Below, in pieces: positions 22,421-62,203 of a DNA stretch of 64,000 bases. The notes under the pieces were generated by a model that was not told the origin of the DNA, did not search any database, and was given only the letters and a program-made list of their open reading frames with translations. Source of the DNA: Pseudomonadota bacterium (lineage in GTDB: Bacteria > Bdellovibrionota > Bdellovibrionia > Bdellovibrionales > Bdellovibrionaceae); NCBI GenBank assembly GCA_041178425.1, contig JBEGVH010000010.1, forward strand, positions 64,001 to 128,000, read 5' to 3'. Both the position numbers and the translations under genes were made by a program. The number at the start of each line of letters is the position of its first letter. Position 1 is the first letter of the stretch.

Positions 22421-22574
22421 CTACAACAGGGTAAACTGATGAAAAACTTTTATGTAGTGCAAAATTTTTCTTGAATTTTTTCTCTACCTGATTATAACTT
22501 GTGCACTAACGCACTGCATTTCTTGCATTGCGTAACATTAGTGTGTGCAATTTCTTCATTGAAAGGTGGAAAGC

Positions 22575-23654
22575 ATGACAACGACGCCCACGAATTCATC
22601 ACCTGTTTTGCCTGGGTCACAAAACCCTTATCAGTCTTACTGGAATCCTACTCAAAGCCAACGTGTTATCGAGCCCAAGACTATGGTCTTTGCCTCAGAG
22701 AGCATGTCCAATTTAATGAAAATGATCGACAAGGTCTCAACCTCTAGCGCTTCTGTACTTATTCTTGGAGAGTCTGGCACGGGCAAAGAGCTTCTTGCTC
22801 ACGCTATTCACGACCGAAGTAATCGTAGAAACAAACCTTTTGTGGCTATCAATTGTGGTGCGCTTCAAGAGGCTCTTTTAGAAAGTGAGCTCTTCGGACA
22901 TGAAAAAGGTTCTTTTACCGGAGCTTATAATCGTAAGATTGGTCTCGCAGAAATGGCAAATGGCGGAACCCTTTTTCTTGATGAAATTGGAGAGCTCACT
23001 CCAGGAATTCAAGCCAAGCTGTTACGCTTTCTACAAGAAGGCGAACTCTACAGAGTCGGTGGAAAAGAACCTATTATGGTTGATGTTCGTATCATCAGTG
23101 CGACCAACCGAAATATCGAAAAAGATGTGACCCAAGGTAAGTTCAGAGAAGATCTATTTTATAGAATCAATACTATTGTATTGAGAACTCCAGCTTTACG
23201 CCAAAGACGTGAAGATATCCCTGTTCTTGTTAATCACTTTTTAAATAATGGTTCACAAGCTTTTCTTGGCCGGGGCCGACAAGTGCATGATGAGGCAATG
23301 AAGATCTTAAGTGATTATGATTGGCCAGGAAACATTCGTGAACTTCAAAACATCTGCGAGAGACTACAAATCCTCTGTGATGGTCACATGATTATGCCAA
23401 ACGACCTACCGGAGCATATCAGAGCTCCTCAACAACGATTATTGCTTACCGAGTATGATGCGAAGCTCACTCTCTATGAACTAGAGAAACGATATATCTT
23501 AAAGGCTTTATTGCACTTTCATGGCAATAAGACCCAAGCTGCTAATGCGCTGGGTATTACGATTAAGACTCTTTATAACAAACTTCATGAATACGGCGAA
23601 TTTGATAAGTTTGCTGTATATCCTAGAGAAGGAAAAGACGGATTTAAAGAATAA
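22575..23654 (+). CDS. Sigma54-dependent activator without receiver domain (AAA+ and Fis-type HTH)
   Basis: GESGTGKE, ESELFGHEKGSFTGA, FLDEIGE, REDLFYR, WPGNIREL, GNKTQAANALGITIKTLYNK. Confidence 0.92.
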   Translation: MTTTPTNSSPVLPGSQNPYQSYWNPTQSQRVIEPKTMVFASESMSNLMKMIDKVSTSSASVLILGESGTGKELLAHAIHDRSNRRNKPFVAINCGALQEALLESELFGHEKGSFTGAYNRKIGLAEMANGGTLFLDEIGELTPGIQAKLLRFLQEGELYRVGGKEPIMVDVRIISATNRNIEKDVTQGKFREDLFYRINTIVLRTPALRQRREDIPVLVNHFLNNGSQAFLGRGRQVHDEAMKILSDYDWPGNIRELQNICERLQILCDGHMIMPNDLPEHIRAPQQRLLLTEYDAKLTLYELEKRYILKALLHFHGNKTQAANALGITIKTLYNKLHEYGEFDKFAVYPREGKDGFKE

Positions 23655-25064: not shown

Positions 25065-25688
25065 TTAAAATTGAGAGCGCATTTTTTGATATCCCATAGC
25101 CACAAGCAATCGAATCGCTTCATGCTCCGAGCTTAAATTGAAATGATTTTTAACTTCCTGAATCATTGTCCAACTTCGAGCATCCACCAAATTACGGAGA
25201 TCCGTAATTGTAGGGCTCGAGCTCATGGAGGCGCTGAAAAGTGGGAGACTGGGATCGTTTAGCGGATTTGGCACTCCCCCCAAATAGGAGGCATTGACCA
25301 TGGAACTTGAAGAAGAAACCGGCTGCGGAGAGTTGGAAGAGCTATTTTGAGCGACGAATTGAGAATTTGTAAATCCACCTGGCTGCATGGTTGCAGCTGC
25401 AGTATTGCTGGGTGGATATTTTGTATTCCCCCCCCCAGTTTTATTGGCACTTGGAGATTCTTCAAGATCGCCCATCATACTCGCAAGATTTTTCAGCTCG
25501 GATTTAAAGCCCTGGAGGTTCATTCTACTCAAAGATGTATCACCATGCATTTGGGCGCGCGTATAGAGAGCCACCAACGCTTCGGGAGACTTCGCCAACT
25601 CCTGCACATTGGCGGGCTGTGACCTCAGCCAATTATAGGCCTGAATCAATGTTTCTTTTGTATAAGCCTGTGGTGGCAAATGCATCAT
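25065..25688 (-). CDS. Hypothetical protein (folded ends, S/N/P-rich disordered middle)
   Basis: 207 aa ORF. PPQAYTKETL N-terminus and a helical C-terminus. Confidence 0.65.
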   Translation of the reverse strand: MMHLPPQAYTKETLIQAYNWLRSQPANVQELAKSPEALVALYTRAQMHGDTSLSRMNLQGFKSELKNLASMMGDLEESPSANKTGGGNTKYPPSNTAAATMQPGGFTNSQFVAQNSSSNSPQPVSSSSSMVNASYLGGVPNPLNDPSLPLFSASMSSSPTITDLRNLVDARSWTMIQEVKNHFNLSSEHEAIRLLVAMGYQKMRSQF

Positions 25689-25893: not shown

Positions 25894-27390
25894 TTAAAGA
25901 TTATAATCTTTGGCGTTAATTCCATATTTCTCTATTTTTCTCAATAGAGTCTTCTTAGGAATATTAGCATGGAGTGCCGTTTGATTGATTCTTCCGTTAA
26001 AGGCTTTTAGAGCCCTAATAATGAACTCCTTCTCAAAAGCTTCCTTTTGCATATTAAAATCGAGAGCCGAGTCTGATGAGAGCGTACCGATGTCCCCGAT
26101 CTCGTTATCGTCTTCTTCAGCCTCTTCGAAAGAGTGACTGTCGAGAGCTGACACCTCTAGGGGTCCATTCTTATCTGTATCTAAAGTTAGATTCTGCCAA
26201 GTTTTGAGATTGACTCCCACGGATTGTAAAACAAATTCGGGCAAGGAACCTAATGTGACTCGCTGAGAATTTTCCATGACAAAAGCATGCTCGATCACAT
26301 TCTCAAGTTCACGAATGTTTCCAGGCCAATCATAGCGGCTCAACACCTGCATGGCCGCAGGATCGACTCCAGTCAATTTTTTACCATGCATCTGATTAAA
26401 TTTACGAACAAAGACATTGATCAAGGTTGGAAGGTCCTCGCGCCTCTCGGCAAGCTGAGGCAAAAATATCGGAATAACATTGAGACGATAAAACAAATCT
26501 TCTCTAAACTTACCCTGTTTAATCATGTCTTCGAGAGGCCGATTCGTTGCTGCAATGATGCGGACATTCGAATGAATCTCTCTCAAAGATCCCACTGGAG
26601 TAAACAGTTTCTCCTGAAGAACCCGAAGTAGTTTTACTTGCATATGCAGTGGCAAGTCTCCCACTTCGTCTAAGAAAAGGGTCCCACCCTCGGCAAATTG
26701 AAATTTACCAATCTTTCTTTGATCAGCCCCGGTGAATGAGCCCTTCTCGTGGCCAAAAAACTCCGATTCAAAAAGGTTCTCCGGTATTGCGGAACAATTC
26801 ACAGCAACGAACTTTTCGTCTTTTCTACCTGAATTAAAATGGATAGCTTTCGCGACCACTTCTTTTCCGGTGCCTGAAGCTCCTCGGATCAGTACTGGGG
26901 TGTCGACTTTTGAGACCCGGTCGATGATATTAAAGACTTTTTGCATCTGTGCTGTATTGCCAATAATTTTGCGACCCTGATCCATGAGCACAGGCGCAGA
27001 AACAGCCACATTCGAAATAAGAGAGTGCGCCTCCAGAGCCTTGTCGAGGATCATTATAAGATCATCACCGCTTACCGGCTTTGCTAGGTAATTATAGGCT
27101 CCATCTTTGACAGCCTGAACGGCACTATCGATAGTGGCAAACGCCGTCATGATTAGTACAATTATTTCTGGATTCTTTGCTTTAATCTGACGAAGGGCCT
27201 CAAGGCCATTCATGCGAGGCATGTCTACGTCGAGAAGGATCACGTCATAGGGTTGCTGTAGGTTTTTTTCAACGGCGTCTATTCCGTCAAAGGCTTCATC
27301 GATCTCAAAACGTCCAGAGCTCTGCAAGATTCCCCGCAGACCTTTTCTAAGACCCTCATCATCATCAACCACTAAAACTCTCAGAGCCAT
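25894..27390 (-). CDS. NtrC-family sigma54-dependent response regulator
   Basis: Receiver (VVDDD, LLDVDMP), AAA+ (GASGTGKE, GSFTGA, WPGNIRELEN), acidic linker, C-terminal HTH. Confidence 0.93.
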   Translation of the reverse strand: MALRVLVVDDDEGLRKGLRGILQSSGRFEIDEAFDGIDAVEKNLQQPYDVILLDVDMPRMNGLEALRQIKAKNPEIIVLIMTAFATIDSAVQAVKDGAYNYLAKPVSGDDLIMILDKALEAHSLISNVAVSAPVLMDQGRKIIGNTAQMQKVFNIIDRVSKVDTPVLIRGASGTGKEVVAKAIHFNSGRKDEKFVAVNCSAIPENLFESEFFGHEKGSFTGADQRKIGKFQFAEGGTLFLDEVGDLPLHMQVKLLRVLQEKLFTPVGSLREIHSNVRIIAATNRPLEDMIKQGKFREDLFYRLNVIPIFLPQLAERREDLPTLINVFVRKFNQMHGKKLTGVDPAAMQVLSRYDWPGNIRELENVIEHAFVMENSQRVTLGSLPEFVLQSVGVNLKTWQNLTLDTDKNGPLEVSALDSHSFEEAEEDDNEIGDIGTLSSDSALDFNMQKEAFEKEFIIRALKAFNGRINQTALHANIPKKTLLRKIEKYGINAKDYNL

Positions 27391-27460
27391 AAATCCCCCG
27401 CTCTTAACCCACTGTTGGGATGGGAGATAAATATCTCAATACCTTAAAATAACAAGAATA

Positions 27461-27488
27461 AAAAAGTTGGGACAAAGCCCAACTTTTT
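27461..27488 (-). terminator. Intrinsic terminator-like hairpin between kinase and regulator genes
   Basis: AAAAAGTTGGG-ACAAAG-CCCAACTTTTT, with a U-tract in both directions. Confidence 0.7.
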
Positions 27489-27571
27489 CTAATGGCGAGA
27501 GCGAATCAAACTGACACTTTTACCTTGAATACGGATCGGCCATGCATTTTTTTCAGCTTTTGTCGTTCAAA

Positions 27572-29449
27572 CTAGGTTAAAACAGGCAGCTCGATCGTAA
27601 ACGTTGAGCCTTTATTTTCGGCACTTATCGCTGATATTTTACCTTTATGAAGCTCCACAAAATATTTTGATAAGTAGAGTCCCAATCCCGAGCCTTTAAC
27701 AGGAGAGTTCTTAGCCTTTCGGCTTCGAAAGAATTTCATGAAAAGGCGAGGCATTTCGTCATCTGGGATGCCGATACCCTGATCAGAAACTTGAATAAGA
27801 ACGCGGTTGTCTTTTTCCTCTGTTCTAATCTTAATTTTTGAATCATTGGGGCTGTACTTGATAGCGTTCTCAATCAAATTGAGAAGCACTTGGCGGATAA
27901 GATCTGCGTCCAATCTCAAGCTAAAAAGTGGTTCCAGCTCTTTTACTATTTTTATTTTTTTCTCTTTGGCCAAATAATCTGTCTTTTGTAGAACTTCTTC
28001 GATGAGAGCATTGATATCTTTGCTCTTTAAATTTAACTGAACCCCTTCACTCTCAATCCGACTGAAGTTCAAAATTGAACTAATAAACCCAAGCAAATCA
28101 TCCGTCGATTTTTGAATCGATTTCAACGCTTGCTTTTGATCATCACTCAAAGGATTTTTATCCCTGAGGACAATTTCTAGCATGCCACTAATTCTTGCTA
28201 GAGGAGTCTTTAGATCATGTGACATCATTCCAATAAAGTTTGATTTAAGCTCCTCCACTTGAGTGAGTAGCTTATTTTTGTGATAGAGCTCCCAACTGCG
28301 ACGATTCTCAACAATAAGGCGATAGGGGATCAAAAAATAGTAGGCCACAAAGATTCCCAGGAGGGGCTGTGCCATGTTCACCCAGTAACCATAGGGCCAA
28401 AATGCAACAAATGTTGCTACCGCAAATAGTAAAACTGACAAGCCAAGAACCATGAGGCCTTTTACTGGAGTCATCGACAAAACGACTTCGACGGTCAGCA
28501 GAACCAAAGTGACAAGCAACAAGATATTAAGCCATTGCGGAACCTTTTGCACACCCGAATTGTGAATCATGGTATTCAACATATTGGCATGAGCCTCGGT
28601 GACTGTCATGGCAGTGACATCGCGGGAGTAAGAGGTGCGGATGTATTCGTGAGTGCTTTCACCCAACTCCGTCCCGATAAAAATGACCTTATTGGTGAAT
28701 TGACCGCTTTCAACCTTACTATTTATGACATCAATAAAATTTGATCGAGAAAAGGATCCCGTGGGAGCCATGTCGATATAGGATTGCTCGCTATCGTAGA
28801 AGTCGAACTTTCCATGAACGGCCTTAATTGAACCTCGCTCGGGAAACAACTGACCTGCCAAGTAGGGATGAAACATCGTTGTACCCTGATAACTTAACAT
28901 CATTCGACGAGTTACACCATCTTGAGCGAGAACTTTAGTATCTGATGTGATCGGACCTGACATAACATGAATTTTATTGAATGGCTCAGGTAAATCTAAT
29001 TTACCTTGTTCGCCTTTCATAGCTAACTCATTAGTAACAAAGTAGACATTTTGCAGACTATCAATCACTGCAACGAAAGCCGCCTTTTCCTCTTCTGTAC
29101 CAACGAGTTCTGCTGGATTCACAACGTAAACAACGGCCTTGGGACCTTCCTCTTTGAGCTTCGAAAGAAGAGCCGTATGATCGGCAATAGTGGGCACTCT
29201 TTTAAGGGCTTCTACAGACGACGGTTCGATCAAGACCAGTTCAATCAAGCCGGTGGTCAGAGGTGCTGATCGAATCACTGTTCGAACGTCATAAAGATAC
29301 GATTCAAAAAAATCGAGGGGTAAGAAAATTATACCGACAGCTAACGCTACGGCCATAAGCCATCGAACGAGTCTGGTCGAAAGTTTCTCTTTAGCATCCA
29401 TACTAATATTTTCAACGCGTCCTTGTGTATTTTCCAAAGTATTACCCAT
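27572..29449 (-). CDS. CHASE2-domain sensor histidine kinase
   Basis: N-terminal TM, periplasmic CHASE2-like region (IELVLIEPSS, DGVTRR, FTNKVIFIG, EAHANML), three TMs, SHDLKTPL, NLIENAIKY, DQGIGI, GSGLGL. Confidence 0.88.
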   Translation of the reverse strand: MGNTLENTQGRVENISMDAKEKLSTRLVRWLMAVALAVGIIFLPLDFFESYLYDVRTVIRSAPLTTGLIELVLIEPSSVEALKRVPTIADHTALLSKLKEEGPKAVVYVVNPAELVGTEEEKAAFVAVIDSLQNVYFVTNELAMKGEQGKLDLPEPFNKIHVMSGPITSDTKVLAQDGVTRRMMLSYQGTTMFHPYLAGQLFPERGSIKAVHGKFDFYDSEQSYIDMAPTGSFSRSNFIDVINSKVESGQFTNKVIFIGTELGESTHEYIRTSYSRDVTAMTVTEAHANMLNTMIHNSGVQKVPQWLNILLLVTLVLLTVEVVLSMTPVKGLMVLGLSVLLFAVATFVAFWPYGYWVNMAQPLLGIFVAYYFLIPYRLIVENRRSWELYHKNKLLTQVEELKSNFIGMMSHDLKTPLARISGMLEIVLRDKNPLSDDQKQALKSIQKSTDDLLGFISSILNFSRIESEGVQLNLKSKDINALIEEVLQKTDYLAKEKKIKIVKELEPLFSLRLDADLIRQVLLNLIENAIKYSPNDSKIKIRTEEKDNRVLIQVSDQGIGIPDDEMPRLFMKFFRSRKAKNSPVKGSGLGLYLSKYFVELHKGKISAISAENKGSTFTIELPVLT

Positions 29450-29481
29450 TCTTAGGTTTACTTGAAAAATAACTAAGAGGC

Positions 29482-29643
29482 CTAATCTCGGTCAATGATA
29501 TTCCCTGTAGGAATGCAACCCAGGCCTTCGGTCGTTGGGATGAAAGTCTTAGCACTCTCTCCTGATTTGATAACCCGACTCGATGAAGGGGTAGCTTTTT
29601 TCTTGCTCGTCAATTTTGGTTTACAAATCTTAATATGCTTCAC
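29482..29643 (-). CDS. Putative RiPP (ranthipeptide-like) precursor peptide, 53 aa: MKHIKICKPKLTSKKKATPSSSRVIKSGESAKTFIPTTEGLGCIPTGNIIDRD
   Basis: GTG start at 29643 with AGGAG RBS 8 nt upstream. Overlaps the radical SAM 3' end by 14 nt. MKHIK N-terminus resembles SCIFF/QhpC leaders. This is the C-terminal half of track ORF 29482..29805. Confidence 0.65.
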   Translation of the reverse strand: MKHIKICKPKLTSKKKATPSSSRVIKSGESAKTFIPTTEGLGCIPTGNIIDRD

Positions 29644-30922
29644 CGTTAAAACTCCTGTATTTTTCATAGTAAATAAATAGTGTTGAGATTGTATTTTTAG
29701 TTCTATCGCAAAAGTCCTGATCGACACGATCTTTGGAATGGGTACCCCGACTATGGATATACTGACACCCTCCGCCACATAGGAAGCGCGCCCAACAGCT
29801 TCCACAGTTCCGACTTTGCAGTTGAGACTGAGCGTATTTTGGGAGATTCACCAAAACACTCTCTCTCTCCTGACCTAAGCTTAATTGCCTATCACTGATC
29901 TCCCAAGGACAACTGAACAAAGAGCCCCTTGCATCCATCGAGAGCATGGACTTTCCGGCACCGCAGAAATTTTCCACCCGCACCTGATCGTCTAATCGCT
30001 GGAAGATCGAATCAAAATGACGAATCTTGCGTAACTCACACTCTCCGCCAATAGCATCGGCCAATGCAGCGACCTCCGACAATTCTTTTGCAAAACTTTT
30101 ACTGGCTTCCGAATCGAAATCCGTATGAGAGAAGTTCAGTTCATAAAAATCGAAGTTCCATCGGCGAAAATAATCATAAGTCTGAACAATCTCGAGATGA
30201 TCCTTATGAAAAACTGCAGACAGTCCTACGCTTGGAAGCTGTTCTTTTATTAATGAGAGTTGTTTAAGGCCAGCCTCGAGGATAGAACTTGAGGGAGTGC
30301 CAGCCTTGGTTGGACGAAACTTATCTTGAACGTGCGGTGGACCATCTACGCTGACTGTGACTGCTATTTTAAACTTTATCAAGAGGGCTAAAACAGAAAC
30401 GTCTAAAAGACGCGTCCCATTCGTCACTACAGCAAACCGAACATTGATTTTATTAGTGGCCCCAAAATCTTGGGCCCATTGCGCCACTTGGCTAATAGTC
30501 TCAGGATAGAGGAGAGGCTCCCCTCCTAAGAAGTTTATTTGAAAACTTGTGCCCTCTTCACATTGGCGGATCAGCCACTCTAATTGCGGAAGTCCTTTTT
30601 TTAAATCAAACTTAACTTGAGGGTCGCCATAGGTGCCGTCACCCCCCGCCGCACAATAGGTGCATTTTAAATTACAGAGTTGGGTTGCATTTACGGTGAT
30701 GGTTCGAATTTTTTGAGCAAGCGTAGAGGTTTTGCAGCTCTCACTAACAGATTCAGACCAAGACTTTAGTTCAGTTAATTCTTCAGATTGCTTACCCGCT
30801 TCAAAGGAATCGACAAGCGAAGGGCTCAAGCGAGCCACCTCAAGATTCACATTGTGAAACCCTACAAATTCATTTGGCCCCGTTTTAAAGATGGAAACAT
30901 TTCCGAATTGAGCTGGTGTCAT
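29630..30922 (-). CDS. Radical SAM/SPASM peptide maturase (CteB/QhpD/anSME-like)
   Basis: CNLKCTYC, FLGGEPLL, VTNGT, SVDG. SPASM cysteines CGAG...C, CGSCWARFLCGGGC...C. About 70-aa N-terminal extension compatible with an RRE. Confidence 0.9.
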   Translation of the reverse strand: MTPAQFGNVSIFKTGPNEFVGFHNVNLEVARLSPSLVDSFEAGKQSEELTELKSWSESVSESCKTSTLAQKIRTITVNATQLCNLKCTYCAAGGDGTYGDPQVKFDLKKGLPQLEWLIRQCEEGTSFQINFLGGEPLLYPETISQVAQWAQDFGATNKINVRFAVVTNGTRLLDVSVLALLIKFKIAVTVSVDGPPHVQDKFRPTKAGTPSSSILEAGLKQLSLIKEQLPSVGLSAVFHKDHLEIVQTYDYFRRWNFDFYELNFSHTDFDSEASKSFAKELSEVAALADAIGGECELRKIRHFDSIFQRLDDQVRVENFCGAGKSMLSMDARGSLFSCPWEISDRQLSLGQERESVLVNLPKYAQSQLQSRNCGSCWARFLCGGGCQYIHSRGTHSKDRVDQDFCDRTKNTISTLFIYYEKYRSFNGEAY

Positions 30923-30964
30923 TTTGACTTCGAATTCCCCTTCTTCATTGCTGCTTTACCAGAA

Positions 30965-30981
30965 TTGCAAAAAGAGTGCCT
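30965..30981 (-). promoter_or_regulatory. Sigma54 -24/-12 promoter upstream of the radical SAM gene
   Basis: Minus strand AGGCACTCTTTTTGCAA: GG-N10-GC with GGCAC and TTGCA, about 43 nt upstream of ATG 30922. Confidence 0.65.
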
Positions 30982-34207: not shown

Positions 34208-34479
34208 TTTTGTCGGAAGAACGCCAACTCCACTTCGCTCGAGTTCTGACTGATGAACTCTGGAATGACGACCTCGTCGATTACTCTGATGATGATCTCG
34301 CACTAAGGGTGGCTCGCCAAGCGATCACTGAATTTGTTAAAGAGGATCTAGAAATCGATCAAAAAGCGAGAGAAAAAGTAGCAAGCTTAAAACGTTCTGT
34401 GATAGAAAGCTCCCCCGAGTGGGAAATCCTATACAAAAAATATTATGAAGAAGAGAGGAATCGTCGTGGCAGCAAATAA
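34204..34479 (+). CDS. DUF507-like protein
   Basis: MILSEER...IDQKAREKVASLKRSVIESSPEWEILYKKYYEEE. ATGA overlap with the upstream gene. Confidence 0.75.
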   Translation: MILSEERQLHFARVLTDELWNDDLVDYSDDDLALRVARQAITEFVKEDLEIDQKAREKVASLKRSVIESSPEWEILYKKYYEEERNRRGSK

Positions 34480-35050
34480 AAAACAAAAAAATAAGCCAGC
34501 AAAAAAAGCAACCCCAAAGAAGGTCACTGCAAAGAAGTCTTCTGCGAAGGTGGCTAAGCCGAAGGCAACCAAAACCAAGATCGTAAAAAAAGTGAGCCCA
34601 GCAAAAAAGGCAAAATCGGCTAAGAAGACAGCGACGAACAAGAAAAAACCGACCAAATCATCTCCCAAAGCTGTCGCTAAAGCGAAAAAATTGACCCCAA
34701 CAAAGACCGCTAGCAAAAAGCCGGCAGCTACTAAACCTACCACCGCCAAAACAAAAGCTTGGATGAAGCCGCTGGATGATCGCCTCTTAGTTGAACTCAT
34801 CGAAGCCGACCAAGTCAGCCAAGGCGGAATCATTCTCGTTGATTCATCAATTCAACCTGAAAATCTTGAGGGCTTTGTCACTGCGATCGGGCGCGGTCAC
34901 CAAAATAAAAAAGGCCGTATTCATCCGATTGAGCTCAAAGTTGGAGATAAAATTATTTTTTCCAAATACGCAGGTGACAAGGTCTCCCATAATGGTGTTA
35001 ATTTTGTAATTATTCGCGAAACTGACGTATTAGGCTTCGCTGCCAATTAA
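34466..35050 (+). CDS. groES: Co-chaperonin GroES with Lys/Ala/Pro-rich N-terminal extension
   Basis: C-terminal MKPLDDRLLV...GGIILVD...VGDKIIFSKYAG...IIRETDVLG. About 100-aa K/A/P/T-rich tail. GTG 34466 follows GAGAGG. Confidence 0.88.
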   Translation: MAANKKQKNKPAKKATPKKVTAKKSSAKVAKPKATKTKIVKKVSPAKKAKSAKKTATNKKKPTKSSPKAVAKAKKLTPTKTASKKPAATKPTTAKTKAWMKPLDDRLLVELIEADQVSQGGIILVDSSIQPENLEGFVTAIGRGHQNKKGRIHPIELKVGDKIIFSKYAGDKVSHNGVNFVIIRETDVLGFAAN

Positions 35051-59509: not shown

Positions 59510-60448
59510 CTAAGCTCCAGCAATTCGAATTCGTGGATCAATAAAGCCATAGATTATATCGACAATAATAACTACGATGACGAGATAGGTTCCATAAAAT
59601 ACAGTCAGACCCATAATCACCGTGTAATCGAGCTGCTGAACGGCTTGAACAAAGTACCTCCCTAATCCAGGAATCGCGAAAACAATTTCAGCCACAAATC
59701 CGCCCGTTGTGATCGCAGCTACCGCAGGCCCAAGAAAAGTTATCACCGGCAACACCGCATTTCTGAGTTGGTGTCGAATAAAAATCTTTATCGGAGCGAC
59801 ACCTTTCGCCTTTGCCGTACGGATATAATCTTGATGAACAACTTCGAGCATGGAAGATCTCATAAGCCGAGCCAAGAAGGCCATTGTACCCAAACCGAGA
59901 ATCAGACCAGGAAGTATTAAATGGGCAAGTGTTCCCCATCCAGCCACTGGCAAGATTTCTACACCAAACTTCTTTTTGATCTCTGCAAGACCGACTTGGG
60001 CAAAAGCAGCAAATACGAAGCTAGGCACAGAAACAAAAAGAATAACCAGCGACATAATCGTACGATCAGGCCATTGATTTCTTCTGATAGCTGCCACGGC
60101 TCCACCAACGATACCCCCGAGGGCCGCGGTAATAATGGCTACCAACCCCAGAAGCGCAGACACCGGGAAGTGTTCACGAATGATGTCATTGACTGAACGA
60201 TTCTGTTGAGTGAACGATATTCCGAAATCACCCTTCAGCATATTAGTCAGAAAAGTGACGTACTGAACGAAGAGAGGCTGATTGAGACCATACTTGGTCT
60301 CTAAATTTTGACGAACCACTTCGTTGACGACCTTTGCCCGCATTAATGGGTCCCCCGGAACGGCGTGCATCGCAAAAAAAGTGATTGTAGCAATCGCATA
60401 CACCGTCATGAGTCCAATAAGAATCCGCTTCATAGCATATGAAAACAC
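59510..60448 (-). CDS. oppB: Oligopeptide ABC permease
   Basis: PGDP, YGLNQP, DFGIS, DYIRTAKAKG, DPRIR. Confidence 0.92.
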   Translation of the reverse strand: MFSYAMKRILIGLMTVYAIATITFFAMHAVPGDPLMRAKVVNEVVRQNLETKYGLNQPLFVQYVTFLTNMLKGDFGISFTQQNRSVNDIIREHFPVSALLGLVAIITAALGGIVGGAVAAIRRNQWPDRTIMSLVILFVSVPSFVFAAFAQVGLAEIKKKFGVEILPVAGWGTLAHLILPGLILGLGTMAFLARLMRSSMLEVVHQDYIRTAKAKGVAPIKIFIRHQLRNAVLPVITFLGPAVAAITTGGFVAEIVFAIPGLGRYFVQAVQQLDYTVIMGLTVFYGTYLVIVVIIVDIIYGFIDPRIRIAGA

Positions 60449-60464
60449 AAAGGCTCCCTGCGGA

Positions 60465-62096
60465 TCAGTCCGCTATTTTCACATTGGTTAAGTCTGGATC
60501 CGAACCTACGGCTCTTCGAACCAAACCCTTGATTTTATCCGAGTGTGTATAAATGATAGTTCTCTCGTATGTTGGAATAATCGGGAGTTCTTCTAGAATG
60601 ATTTTTTCTGCCTTAGCCATTTCACCCATTCGAGTTTGAGTATCAACAGTTCCTAATGCATTTCTTATGTGCTGATCATAGTCTTTATTAAACCATTGAC
60701 CCGTATTGTTTCCATTCCACGAAGTAAATAAGTCCACAAAAGTCATTGGGTCTGCGTAATCAGGTCCCCAACCGGCGGAAACAATATCAAAGTCTCCAGC
60801 TCTCATTTTTGCGAGTCGTTGTTTAAAGATTTGCTTATCCACCTTCAGTTGAATTCCTAAAGTCGTCTTCAACAAATTCTGCATATACTCAGCCTCTTTA
60901 GTTGCCGTTGGACTATCTGTTGTGAGCCACACGAGACTTGGTGGGCTCTTCAACTTTAACTCTTTCATGGCAGCAGCCAAATATTGCTTACCCATAGCAA
61001 TGTCATTTTTTACGGCTATCAATGGGAACTCTTTTCGAAATGGCCCATTTACTCCATTGAGCCAAGCGGGAATCAATCCCGTACCTGGAATAGTTCCTGG
61101 GATTCCAACAATTCTACTGACATATTGATTGGCATTAAAAACAGAGCGAATAGCCTTGCGCAAATTTTTGTTTGCTGTGAGATGACCTTCGCGAAAATTA
61201 AAGCTGAAGTAAAACACAGTGCCATCAGTAAACTTCCTTAACTTAAAATGTTCCCTCTGAGCATTTGAGAGGTTTTCCTTATTAAGACCCAAAATATCAA
61301 TTTTTTGAGTCTTGAATAGATTAAAGCGAGCGGTCTCATCCGGAGTAATATAAGGAACATCGATCACATCGACATCTACGTTTTTCTTATTCCAATAAAA
61401 AGGGTTTCTCTCCATTCGAAGACTCGATCCATGAACCCAGGTGGTTAATTTAAACGGTCCGTTAAACAGCATGCTTTCAGGATTCGAAGCATACCGATCT
61501 TTCGTCCTCTGAACTAAATCCTCTCGAATGGGAAAATAGGTGGCAAAAGCTGTTAAGCCGAGAAAATACCCACAGGGCTTTTCAAACGTAACTTCGAGAG
61601 TTCGATCATCTTTAGCCACAGCACCCAGTTGCTCAAGTGGCAACTTTCCTTGATTGATAAGTTCGGCGTTCTTTATTGGATACAAGATGAACGAATATTC
61701 GCTGGCTGTCGCCGGATCCAAAGCTCGTCGCCAAGAAAAAACAAAATCTTTCGCCACCACCGGCTGCCCATCACTCCAACGAGCGTCTGCGCGTAGATAG
61801 AAAACGACGCCTTGCTCAGTTAGCGTCCATCGCTCCGCAACTCCGGGAGCTGTGTTACCATCTTTACCGTAGCGAGTAAGACCCTCCATTGAATGCCCTA
61901 AAACAAAAAAACTCTCAGAGTCTGTTGCGCGACCTGCATCTAAATTAGGAGGCTCGGTTGATAAGGCGAGAGTGACTGTTTTGAGTTTCAACTGAGAATA
62001 ACCAATAGAGGGAAAACCAAGGCAAAAAAGAACCTCGATCATGAGGGCCACTTTGATACCGTATTTTAGATAATTCAACACGCGTGGAAGGGTCAT
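60465..62096 (-). CDS. oppA: Oligopeptide ABC substrate-binding protein
   Basis: EGLTRY, WSDGQPV.AKDF..SW, NGPFKL, GWGPDYADP. Confidence 0.9.
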   Translation of the reverse strand: MTLPRVLNYLKYGIKVALMIEVLFCLGFPSIGYSQLKLKTVTLALSTEPPNLDAGRATDSESFFVLGHSMEGLTRYGKDGNTAPGVAERWTLTEQGVVFYLRADARWSDGQPVVAKDFVFSWRRALDPATASEYSFILYPIKNAELINQGKLPLEQLGAVAKDDRTLEVTFEKPCGYFLGLTAFATYFPIREDLVQRTKDRYASNPESMLFNGPFKLTTWVHGSSLRMERNPFYWNKKNVDVDVIDVPYITPDETARFNLFKTQKIDILGLNKENLSNAQREHFKLRKFTDGTVFYFSFNFREGHLTANKNLRKAIRSVFNANQYVSRIVGIPGTIPGTGLIPAWLNGVNGPFRKEFPLIAVKNDIAMGKQYLAAAMKELKLKSPPSLVWLTTDSPTATKEAEYMQNLLKTTLGIQLKVDKQIFKQRLAKMRAGDFDIVSAGWGPDYADPMTFVDLFTSWNGNNTGQWFNKDYDQHIRNALGTVDTQTRMGEMAKAEKIILEELPIIPTYERTIIYTHSDKIKGLVRRAVGSDPDLTNVKIAD

Positions 62097-62203
62097 CTCA
62101 AATAGCTCCTCATAAATTACAAATAGAGCCGCCACAATGGCTCATGGGGCAGTAATTTGCAATGCTGATGCCATCGTATTCGGAGCCGATTTGACTCCTG
62201 ATT

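Follow-up and report, generated by a model that had tools for sequence, protein, structure and literature searches.

Layout and conservation of the locus

In a 64,000-nt stretch of Bdellovibrionaceae DNA, referred to here as the window, we analysed a minus-strand element (25894..30981) whose four genes encode a radical SAM/SPASM maturase, a precursor peptide, a sensor kinase and a sigma-54 activator, orthologues of Bd3357, Bd3358, Bd3359 and Bd3360, respectively, of Bdellovibrio bacteriovorus. The promoter, hairpin and palindrome features described below lie on the same strand. The maturase (30922-29630; 430 aa; PF04055) has an RRE-like N-terminal domain, and its stop codon lies within a 14-nt overlap with the peptide gene (29643-29482; 53 aa), which starts with GTG, is preceded 8 nt upstream by GGAG, and encodes a Lys-rich HIK leader and the core Cys43-Ile-Pro45. 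After a further 32 nt comes the kinase gene (29449-27572; 625 aa): Pfam matches and hydropathy together give its product one transmembrane segment, a periplasmic CHASE2 domain, three more transmembrane segments, a HisKA domain with His411, and a HATPase domain. The regulator (27390-25894; 498 aa) is of NtrC type, with REC, AAA+ and helix-turn-helix (HTH) domains assigned by Pfam and a GSFTGA loop at 217, and its HTH is almost invariant across the order and in 20/20 distant loci. An earlier, sequence-only reading of this DNA had described four co-oriented genes down to the small overlapping peptide, the kinase spacing and the activator type, and the open reading frames (ORFs) and Pfam assignments confirm all of these. 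Together, the HisKA kinase, the REC-AAA-HTH activator, RpoN (an rpoN gene was found in the source genome) and a -24/-12 promoter constitute an NtrB/NtrC-type sigma-54 two-component system.

Scanning species genomes gave 80 loci, 73 of which were analysed as Bdellovibrionales-type orthologues; the other seven (L072, L073, L075 and L077-L080) are distant, show neither kinase nor regulator, and are excluded from every count. Trees and pairs were de-duplicated for those genomes that appear in two or more locus sets. The gene set is tightly kept: the peptide was found at 70/70 loci with an intact maturase 3′ end (66 by pattern, 4 by eye), the CHASE2 kinase at 67/67 maturase loci with 700 nt of downstream sequence, and the regulator at 59/59 with 2.6 kb. 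The gap between maturase and kinase stays within 70-393 nt (68 loci) although both flanks take insertions; upstream of the unit the gap exceeds 600 nt in 37 of 43 loci. Three loci (L007, L010 and L055) are rearranged and retain all four genes. One locus, L050, is titled Bacillota and carries a typical Bdellovibrio locus; it is probably a mis-binned contig.

Within the phylum, the maturase was found in 72 of 401 genomes: it is present in 55/56 of the window's family, patchy in the order, and nearly absent beyond. In one distant genome, L111 (G006:C81), the arrangement recurs with a maturase of 26% identity and a peptide with a single Cys, and the CHASE2 gene runs off the end of the contig. That cassette lies among multihaem cytochrome genes, with a nucleotidyltransferase-like gene between the peptide and CHASE2 genes. 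When metagenomes were scanned with this distant maturase, one weak match came up apart from the query itself.

The maturase and its precursor peptide

All ten cluster cysteines of the maturase (C83/87/90 of the radical SAM motif plus seven in the SPASM domain) are invariant in 69/69 maturases. The best PDB match of the maturase profile is CteB (E 1e-48), and our model (predicted local distance difference test, pLDDT, 92) fits CteB over its full length with a template-modelling score of 0.80; residues 9-57 are modelled as three strands and two helices, as in an RRE. CteB/CteA (SCIFF/thermocellin; PDB 5WGG, 5WHY), and likewise PapB and QhpD, share this fold, the RRE-like N-terminus, the seven-Cys SPASM domain and a Cys-containing substrate, whereas the peptide here has one core Cys instead of six and no conserved Asp/Glu/Thr acceptor. 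The maturase also falls below every NCBIfam cut-off (best 159/519, 154/340, 123/453 and 103/425 bits), and unlike the SCIFF/ranthipeptide genes it is encoded beside a sensor kinase and a sigma-54 activator, with a peptide that matches no family: it is ranthipeptide-like yet outside the curated families.

The precursor peptides are 27-58 aa long, with a mean charge of +5, an HIKK(V/I)KP-like leader and an invariant Cys. In 64 distinct peptides the residue at Cys+2 is Pro in 60, Glu in three and Val in one; between 3 and 12 residues follow the core Cys, and 27/64 peptides end four residues past it. The peptide alignment (A3) contains no conserved Trp. Searches of Pfam, NCBIfam, PDB and Atlas matched no peptide family and gave nothing usable, and a putative likeness of the leader to that of SCIFF found no support in those searches; an apparent additional peptide gene on contig C9 runs antisense to another gene and was rejected. 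The window peptide has a second Cys in its leader (Cys7, codon 29623-29625), common to L001, L007 and L010 and not to the wider family. At L027:3473-3704 and L037:9220-9545, two tandem diverged peptide genes lie between maturase and kinase.

In CteB, the open site on one auxiliary cluster is reported to take the substrate Cys, and the CteA link joins Cys32 to Thr34, that is, to the +2 position (PMC8326336), which in the present family is the conserved Pro. The fold fit, this Cys-binding site and the Cys32-Thr34 link make a thioether from Cys43 to the residue at +2 (Pro), +3 or +4 the best inference, and we consider it probable that the maturase joins the Cys43 thiol to a carbon two to four residues downstream, forming a thioether ring. 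The earlier proposal of a thioether-type SPASM maturase acting on a small peptide thus gains support from the likeness to CteB and from the invariant Cys. Formylglycine is still a rival chemistry, since the family has no conserved acidic acceptor and 13/64 peptides contain C-x-P-x-R, and we regard it, or another Cys oxidation, as possible but distinctly less likely. The anaerobic-type sulfatase-maturing enzyme anSME (PDB 4K36-4K39) is likewise a SPASM protein and acts on the Cys of that exact motif; its match to our maturase is, however, much weaker (E 1e-22), an RRE-like domain is present here, and the aligned maturases lack both the additional cluster Cys and the Asp that follows the first-cluster Cys. 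In anSME, these residues are part of an eight-Cys SPASM domain and the catalytic Asp, respectively.

Promoter, candidate operator and transcription units

The unit is headed by a -24/-12 sigma-54 promoter (30981-30966). Boxes of this kind are not above chance within the window (6 matches vs 3.2 expected; 10/100 shuffles reach 6). Across loci, the box precedes 62/70 orthologous maturase genes, compared with 47/3488 random windows (1.3%), 1/69 kinase genes, and 0/47, 0/36 and 0/19 of other neighbouring genes. This conservation and the rpoN gene bear out the sigma-54 promoter that had been proposed from the window.

A palindrome of the class GGTGTCA-N3-TGACACC was found de novo before maturase promoters (log-likelihood 184 vs ~31 in shuffles), where it takes positions of about -128, -97, -42, and +21 to +33. 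It also lies before the kinase in 38/42 maturase-less loci (vs 7.8% of random windows) and before 10/20 distant-class kinase loci, and a matrix retrained on maturase-less sites matched 44/63 maturase promoters (vs 5.2% random). In the window, the palindrome at 30931-30915 (~+33) is a candidate operator for the regulator and overlaps the maturase start codon; a matrix built solely from 29 sites at loci lacking the maturase gives it 13.7 bits, with the caveat that half of it is the start codon, which is able to mimic the motif. Because the palindrome goes with the kinase-regulator pair even where there is no maturase, it belongs to the pair and fits self-regulation. The pair probably regulates itself, with the palindrome as its candidate operator, and re-activation of the operon by its own regulator, as envisaged earlier, may be part of this.

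The source genome encodes 11 sigma-54 activators, one of which, a paralogue, has an HTH nearly identical to that of the unit's regulator. It contains 11 intergenic palindromes of at least 13 bits, four of them with a sigma-54 box; no clear palindrome regulon emerged, and in all but one of five relatives the exact pattern occurred at close to control levels. IHF-like sites accompany 20/63 promoters vs 105/770 random windows, with none in the window.

Between kinase and regulator lies an intrinsic terminator-like hairpin overlooked in the earlier reading (27489-27460; 12-bp stem with a U tail; z -4.3, 0/200 shuffles as good), which implies that the four genes are probably not one transcript in the source genome. 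Of the single four-gene unit first described, the co-orientation stands and a common transcript probably does not. On these sequence features, the regulator is probably transcribed separately in the genus of the source genome, putatively from a sigma-70-like promoter candidate (27427-27455; TTGT(T/C)A-N17-TA) that occurs in the window and in both close relatives with a divergent regulator (3/3 examined). In Bdellovibrio-titled loci, kinase and regulator overlap (21/57 gaps negative). Sigma-54-like boxes before the regulator (11/60) lie 119-221 nt upstream, mostly inside the kinase coding sequence, and were rejected.

A second, 9-bp hairpin lies 3′ of the upstream 129-aa gene (31095-31075; -15.5 kcal/mol, z -3.4, 1/200 shuffles equally good). 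It had been read as insulating the unit; the hairpin itself is well supported, but its U tail is weak and an insulating role is putative. At -127 it occupies the palindrome's position in relatives, and it scored 7.0 bits with the first matrix; an enhancer assignment was dropped when two retrained matrices gave 0.1-1.8 bits. It may be a weak terminator or a degenerate enhancer.

Induction on prey entry

In B. bacteriovorus HD100, the protein CAE78160 (427 aa, annotated as "heme biosynthesis") falls into one 90% cluster with the maturase of L039, and Bd3357 is a maturase mis-annotated as a haem biosynthesis protein. Published tables give Bd3357 as 1284 nt and Bd3358 as 117 nt (38 aa, like the L039 peptide), followed by the kinase Bd3359 and the regulator Bd3360 (PMC3627812). 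In the predatosome lists (PMC2797640), Bd3357-60 all appear as up on prey entry and not in host-independent growth, with fold changes of 1.6, 2.2, 2.2 and 3.0 compared with 0.68 and 1.06 for the flanking genes, which are absent from that list. This co-induction in the model strain agrees with the earlier suggestion that the four genes operate jointly. Growth-phase expression in reads per kilobase per million points the same way, from 0.7, 2.6, 1.3 and 4.4 to 41, 26, 34 and 88 for the four genes in order, with the reservations that counts were low, that Bd3360 alone was called expressed, and that Bd3361 rises too (PMC3627812). Bd3359 is also listed among predator-shared genes (PMC3526173).

A sister system with an ATP-grasp ligase

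Seven loci without the maturase (L139, L141, L142, L145, L163, L200 and L201) encode a Lys-rich peptide devoid of Cys, placed after the sigma-54 box and before the kinase. In all seven, the peptide ends in [S/T/K]-x-P-x(1-2)-[D/E], an ending present in only 8/670 small ORFs of those loci, and a divergent ATP-grasp gene adjoins it, with MvdC/MvdD-type peptide ligases as best matches (NCBIfam E 1e-36 to 1e-41 in 5/5, below cut-off). The ligase gene of L141 runs off its contig and resumes on a different one. Across 238 loci the ligase profile matched only in this group, and strong matches occur in 9/301 order genomes, all in three families without a radical SAM gene at the locus. A Ser/Thr/Lys donor and an Asp/Glu acceptor are the residues that form graspetide lactones and lactams (PMC8939145); the sister system shares these residues and the ligase type with microviridin MvdC/MvdD, and differs in having one possible ring and in being tied to a CHASE2 kinase. 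The main text of that survey contains no mention of Bdellovibrio or CHASE. From the sequences, two unrelated types of putative ring-forming enzyme occupy one slot, each beside a fitting Pro-centred core.

L139 and L145 are nearly identical in their DNA flanks (96% across 4.45 kb to one side and 95% across 5.45 kb to the other), in the kinase (99%) and in the regulator (100%), and differ sharply in between: CHASE2 is 37% and the ligase 52% identical, the peptides are unrelated, and identity jumps at the boundary between transmembrane and kinase regions inside the kinase gene. Three peptide types pair with three CHASE2 types in six genomes (57-74% identity within types, 35-51% between). The ATP-grasp branch thus has a hypervariable island of ligase, peptide and CHASE2 ectodomain between conserved flanks.

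Two further peptide ORFs, at L130 and L149, lack the end motif, and there is no ligase within the locus sequence; L130 comes from the only genome of the family that lacks the maturase, and its ORF (L130:7728-7856; 42 aa, no Cys) repeats a KPPF motif and lies behind a sigma-54 box and palindrome. Immediately upstream of the unit there is often another kinase of CHASE2 type (L130, L139, L149, L201-L205 and L207). That of L201 has an ectodomain 65% identical to the type-B receptor, while the locus has its own peptide and receptor of type A; eavesdropping and the relic of a swap are possible readings.

The peptide as a candidate ligand of its own kinase

We propose that an old, self-regulated sigma-54 two-component system has been fitted with a lineage-specific peptide module. 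During entry into prey, when induction is seen in B. bacteriovorus, the phosphorylated regulator would, judging from the promoter, fire transcription of the unit; the maturase would bind the Lys-rich leader and form a small Pro-containing thioether ring from Cys43. The core would then reach the periplasm by a hypothetical route encoded elsewhere than this locus, bind the CHASE2 domain of its own kinase and shift the kinase/phosphatase balance. Such a signal would stay within one cell or its bdelloplast and would report confinement or timing rather than crowding, and a kinase left without mature peptide would be a costly state, as the fitness pattern described below suggests. That the cyclised peptide acts privately, and from outside, on its own CHASE2 kinase seems to us reasonably likely; activation and dampening are about equally plausible as the sign of that action, each by itself being tentative. 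Support for a ligand role comes indirectly, by analogy, from the ATP-grasp sister system.

Fitness in the model strain bears on the sign. In a transposon insertion sequencing (Tn-seq) data set (PMC6561027, Data Set S2; n 3, genes matched by order and annotation, many neighbours noisy), maturase insertions have W values of 0.80, 0.57, 0.70 and 0.62 compared with 1.43-1.50 for intergenic insertions, whereas kinase insertions, at 2.29, 2.15, 2.45 and 2.05, lie above neutral. The regulator has no fitness data in that set and is absent from its essential-gene list; a row named HemY is another gene and was rejected. Since maturase insertions remain costly in a pooled library, neighbouring cells do not rescue the defect; we also infer that it is not simple polarity on the kinase, and its sign is opposite to that of kinase loss. 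These opposite signs fit a private ligand that dampens the kinase or lifts its phosphatase activity, and do not fit a shared, purely positive autoinducer. Of the agr-like loop suggested by the sequence-only reading, linkage, promoter and probable self-regulation are supported, whereas the fitness signs speak against a simple positive loop.

Co-variation between peptide and receptor gave mixed results. In peptide-bearing pairs, CHASE2 diverges faster relative to the kinase-regulator core (23 vs 9 disjoint pairs, p 0.006), with CHASE2/core branch-length ratios of 4.06 for loci with the maturase, 3.22 for those with no peptide and 5.87 for those with a peptide only. In ten discordant cases among the 73 loci, which are non-independent, the peptide followed CHASE2 seven times and the core once, with two ties. 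An all-pairs partial Mantel test (r 0.34, 0/500 permutations) was set aside, as kin are non-independent and disjoint-pair controls erased its specificity. The CHASE2 domain (28547-29320) was modelled with a pLDDT of 94, a fold search against solved structures gave no clear match (best Z 5.7), and a predicted complex with the C-terminal 30 residues of the peptide scored 0.02, which gives no verdict.

Several observations, the benefit of kinase loss among them, weigh against a ligand role. With PBP as the clock, there is no rise in the ratio of CHASE2 to PBP (1.10 with n 14, compared with 1.26 with n 3); in 30 disjoint pairs of the radical SAM branch, peptide change correlates with CHASE2 (r 0.47) no better than with the transmembrane segments (0.44), the maturase (0.54) or PBP (0.44), and after control it falls to -0.26 for PBP (n 15) and 0.14 for the maturase. 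No ligand-specific CHASE2 residues separate the peptide-bearing from the peptide-less groups, and none of 90 peptides has a hydrophobic signal stretch. The island of the sister system is confined to the ATP-grasp branch, to six assembled genomes and to few events; adjacency alone would move peptide and ectodomain together, and ligase identity does not follow peptide type A. The pair is also phylum-wide, with CHASE2 matches in 149/201 order genomes (weak matches included) and 221/301 phylum genomes. No peptide of this kind was found at 35 of 42 maturase-less order loci, and 20/20 kinase loci from other classes have the same regulator HTH without a maturase or convincing peptide. Because such loci exist, CHASE2 must have another or older input.

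This distribution qualifies the linkage of the two-component genes to the radical SAM gene in relatives: viewed from the Bdellovibrionales-type maturases the linkage is complete at loci with enough flanking sequence, but across the phylum the pair often occurs without maturase and peptide, and 43 of 60 further kinase loci from the order lack the maturase. A tree of the kinase-regulator pairs from 101 non-redundant loci requires at least seven changes in maturase presence; together with the correlation between maturase and core identity (rho 0.79, 43 loci), this points to inheritance with repeated loss. By its phylogenetic spread, the kinase-regulator pair is older than the peptide module.

The strongest alternative is that the two-component system produces the modified peptide as an output that serves a separate purpose, directed at prey remains, the predator's growth machinery or rival predators, while the kinase senses an unrelated envelope or prey cue. 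The greater age and width of the pair, with a module that comes and goes beside it, suit this explanation, as do the non-specific co-variation in the radical SAM branch, the difference in sign between maturase and kinase mutants, and the secreted proteins encoded by other palindrome-bearing sigma-54 genes. It leaves unexplained, however, why the island ends at the transmembrane-kinase boundary within the kinase gene, why three ectodomain alleles match three peptide types, and why two unrelated ring-forming enzymes share one slot; it also predicts that kinase loss should lower peptide supply and with it fitness, and fitness is not lowered. We consider it unlikely, though it is the foremost competitor of a ligand acting from outside.

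The peptide could instead be an intracellular feedback regulator that dampens the kinase or regulator in the cytoplasm or at the inner membrane, following the MgrB-type logic by which small feedback proteins dampen other two-component systems. Neither a signal sequence nor an exporter was found, the defect is cell-autonomous with opposite Tn-seq signs, and the palindrome positions at -42 and +21 to +33 would suit repression. Against it, the periplasmic domain is the part that varies together with the peptide, whereas the cytoplasmic kinase retains 99% identity, and we judge this explanation quite improbable. That the module is a passenger, a small peptide cluster on a convenient promoter linked to the kinase by co-transcription alone, would agree with the many insertions upstream of the kinase and with the generally conserved gene order here, but is very hard to reconcile with a module present in nearly every family genome and inherited with the pair, which survives rearrangements, is replaced in place by another cyclase and costs fitness when lost.

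Returning to the ligand role, a broader and more speculative extension is that the Bdellovibrionales use peptide-pheromone dialects: Pro-centred rings, made by radical SAM or ATP-grasp enzymes, that would be read by CHASE2 and feed a sigma-54 switch. If so, the switch would inform the predator that it has been enclosed in its prey, or that the prey is shared with kin or a rival; the rings would be the first class of CHASE2 ligand and the first self-made signal of a periplasmic predator, with the radical SAM rings possibly closed by an unreported Cys-to-Pro thioether.

Relation to known systems

The locus has the maturase-peptide-kinase-regulator order of the comQXPA and agr pheromone loci, and probable self-regulation as well; a variable island like that of comQXPA is seen in the sister branch with the ATP-grasp ligase (the radical SAM branch showing non-specific co-variation), and many of the peptides here (27/64) have five-residue C-terminal cores like those of agr-type peptides. 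The differences are substantial. The host is diderm, and a radical SAM or ATP-grasp enzyme takes the place of ComQ or AgrB; in particular, the maturase is no ComQ prenyltransferase, and the conserved Trp target is lacking. The receptor is a CHASE2-HisKA protein rather than an AgrC-type polytopic one, and it also occurs without a peptide, while a sigma-54 activator replaces the LytTR or NarL type. No exporter was found: as the sequence-only reading had remarked, neither an exporter nor a peptidase is encoded locally, and a search of the whole genome found no C39 peptidase-exporter and no AgrB (no PF04647 match, and control genomes were likewise without a match over the cut-off). The proposed system would work like comQXPA and agr but is a member of neither. 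In clostridia, SCIFF genes are reported to influence sporulation and agr expression (PMC8102284).

Full-text searches, made outside subscription journals and bioRxiv supplements, gave no paper whose title or opening abstract lines describe the system; Bd3357 and Bd3358 appear in no main text searched, and Bd3359 and Bd3360 solely in gene lists. A term search of a 2026 review (PMC13689555) finds no mention of two-component or quorum signalling, and CHASE2 ligands have been described as unknown (PMC5192318). It has long been asked how Bdellovibrio recognises that it is inside prey and turns to growth. The locus offers candidates for ligand, receptor, activator, promoter and operator in a strain that is amenable to genetics (Bd3357-60), natural peptide/receptor allele pairs usable for specificity, a candidate new radical SAM reaction, and in the CHASE2 domain a structure target.

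Other observations in the window and genome

Elsewhere in the window (59510-62173, minus strand), genes for an oligopeptide-type ABC binding protein and permease lie behind a sigma-54 box with a palindrome at -42 (8.8 bits with the first matrix), making them a possible regulon member and peptide uptake route. The source genome (G000) also has a paralogous pair of CHASE2 kinase and sigma-54 activator without maturase or peptide (G000:C14:7562-10955), and the near-identical HTH makes cross-regulation possible. A receiver-less sigma-54 activator encoded 2.2 kb from the unit (22566-23654) is another candidate activator. The genome contains 155 intergenic sigma-54-type boxes, many before signal-peptide-like starts, and RpoN may run a large secretion programme. 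A 207-aa protein (25065-25688) is encoded after the regulator throughout the order, whether the maturase is present or absent; its Atlas clusters are Bdellovibrionota hypotheticals, with a weak lead to MatP. The protein at 34445-35050, GroES-like by its sequence, has a long Lys/Ala-rich, histone-like N-terminal extension, and similar proteins occur at L134 and L147.

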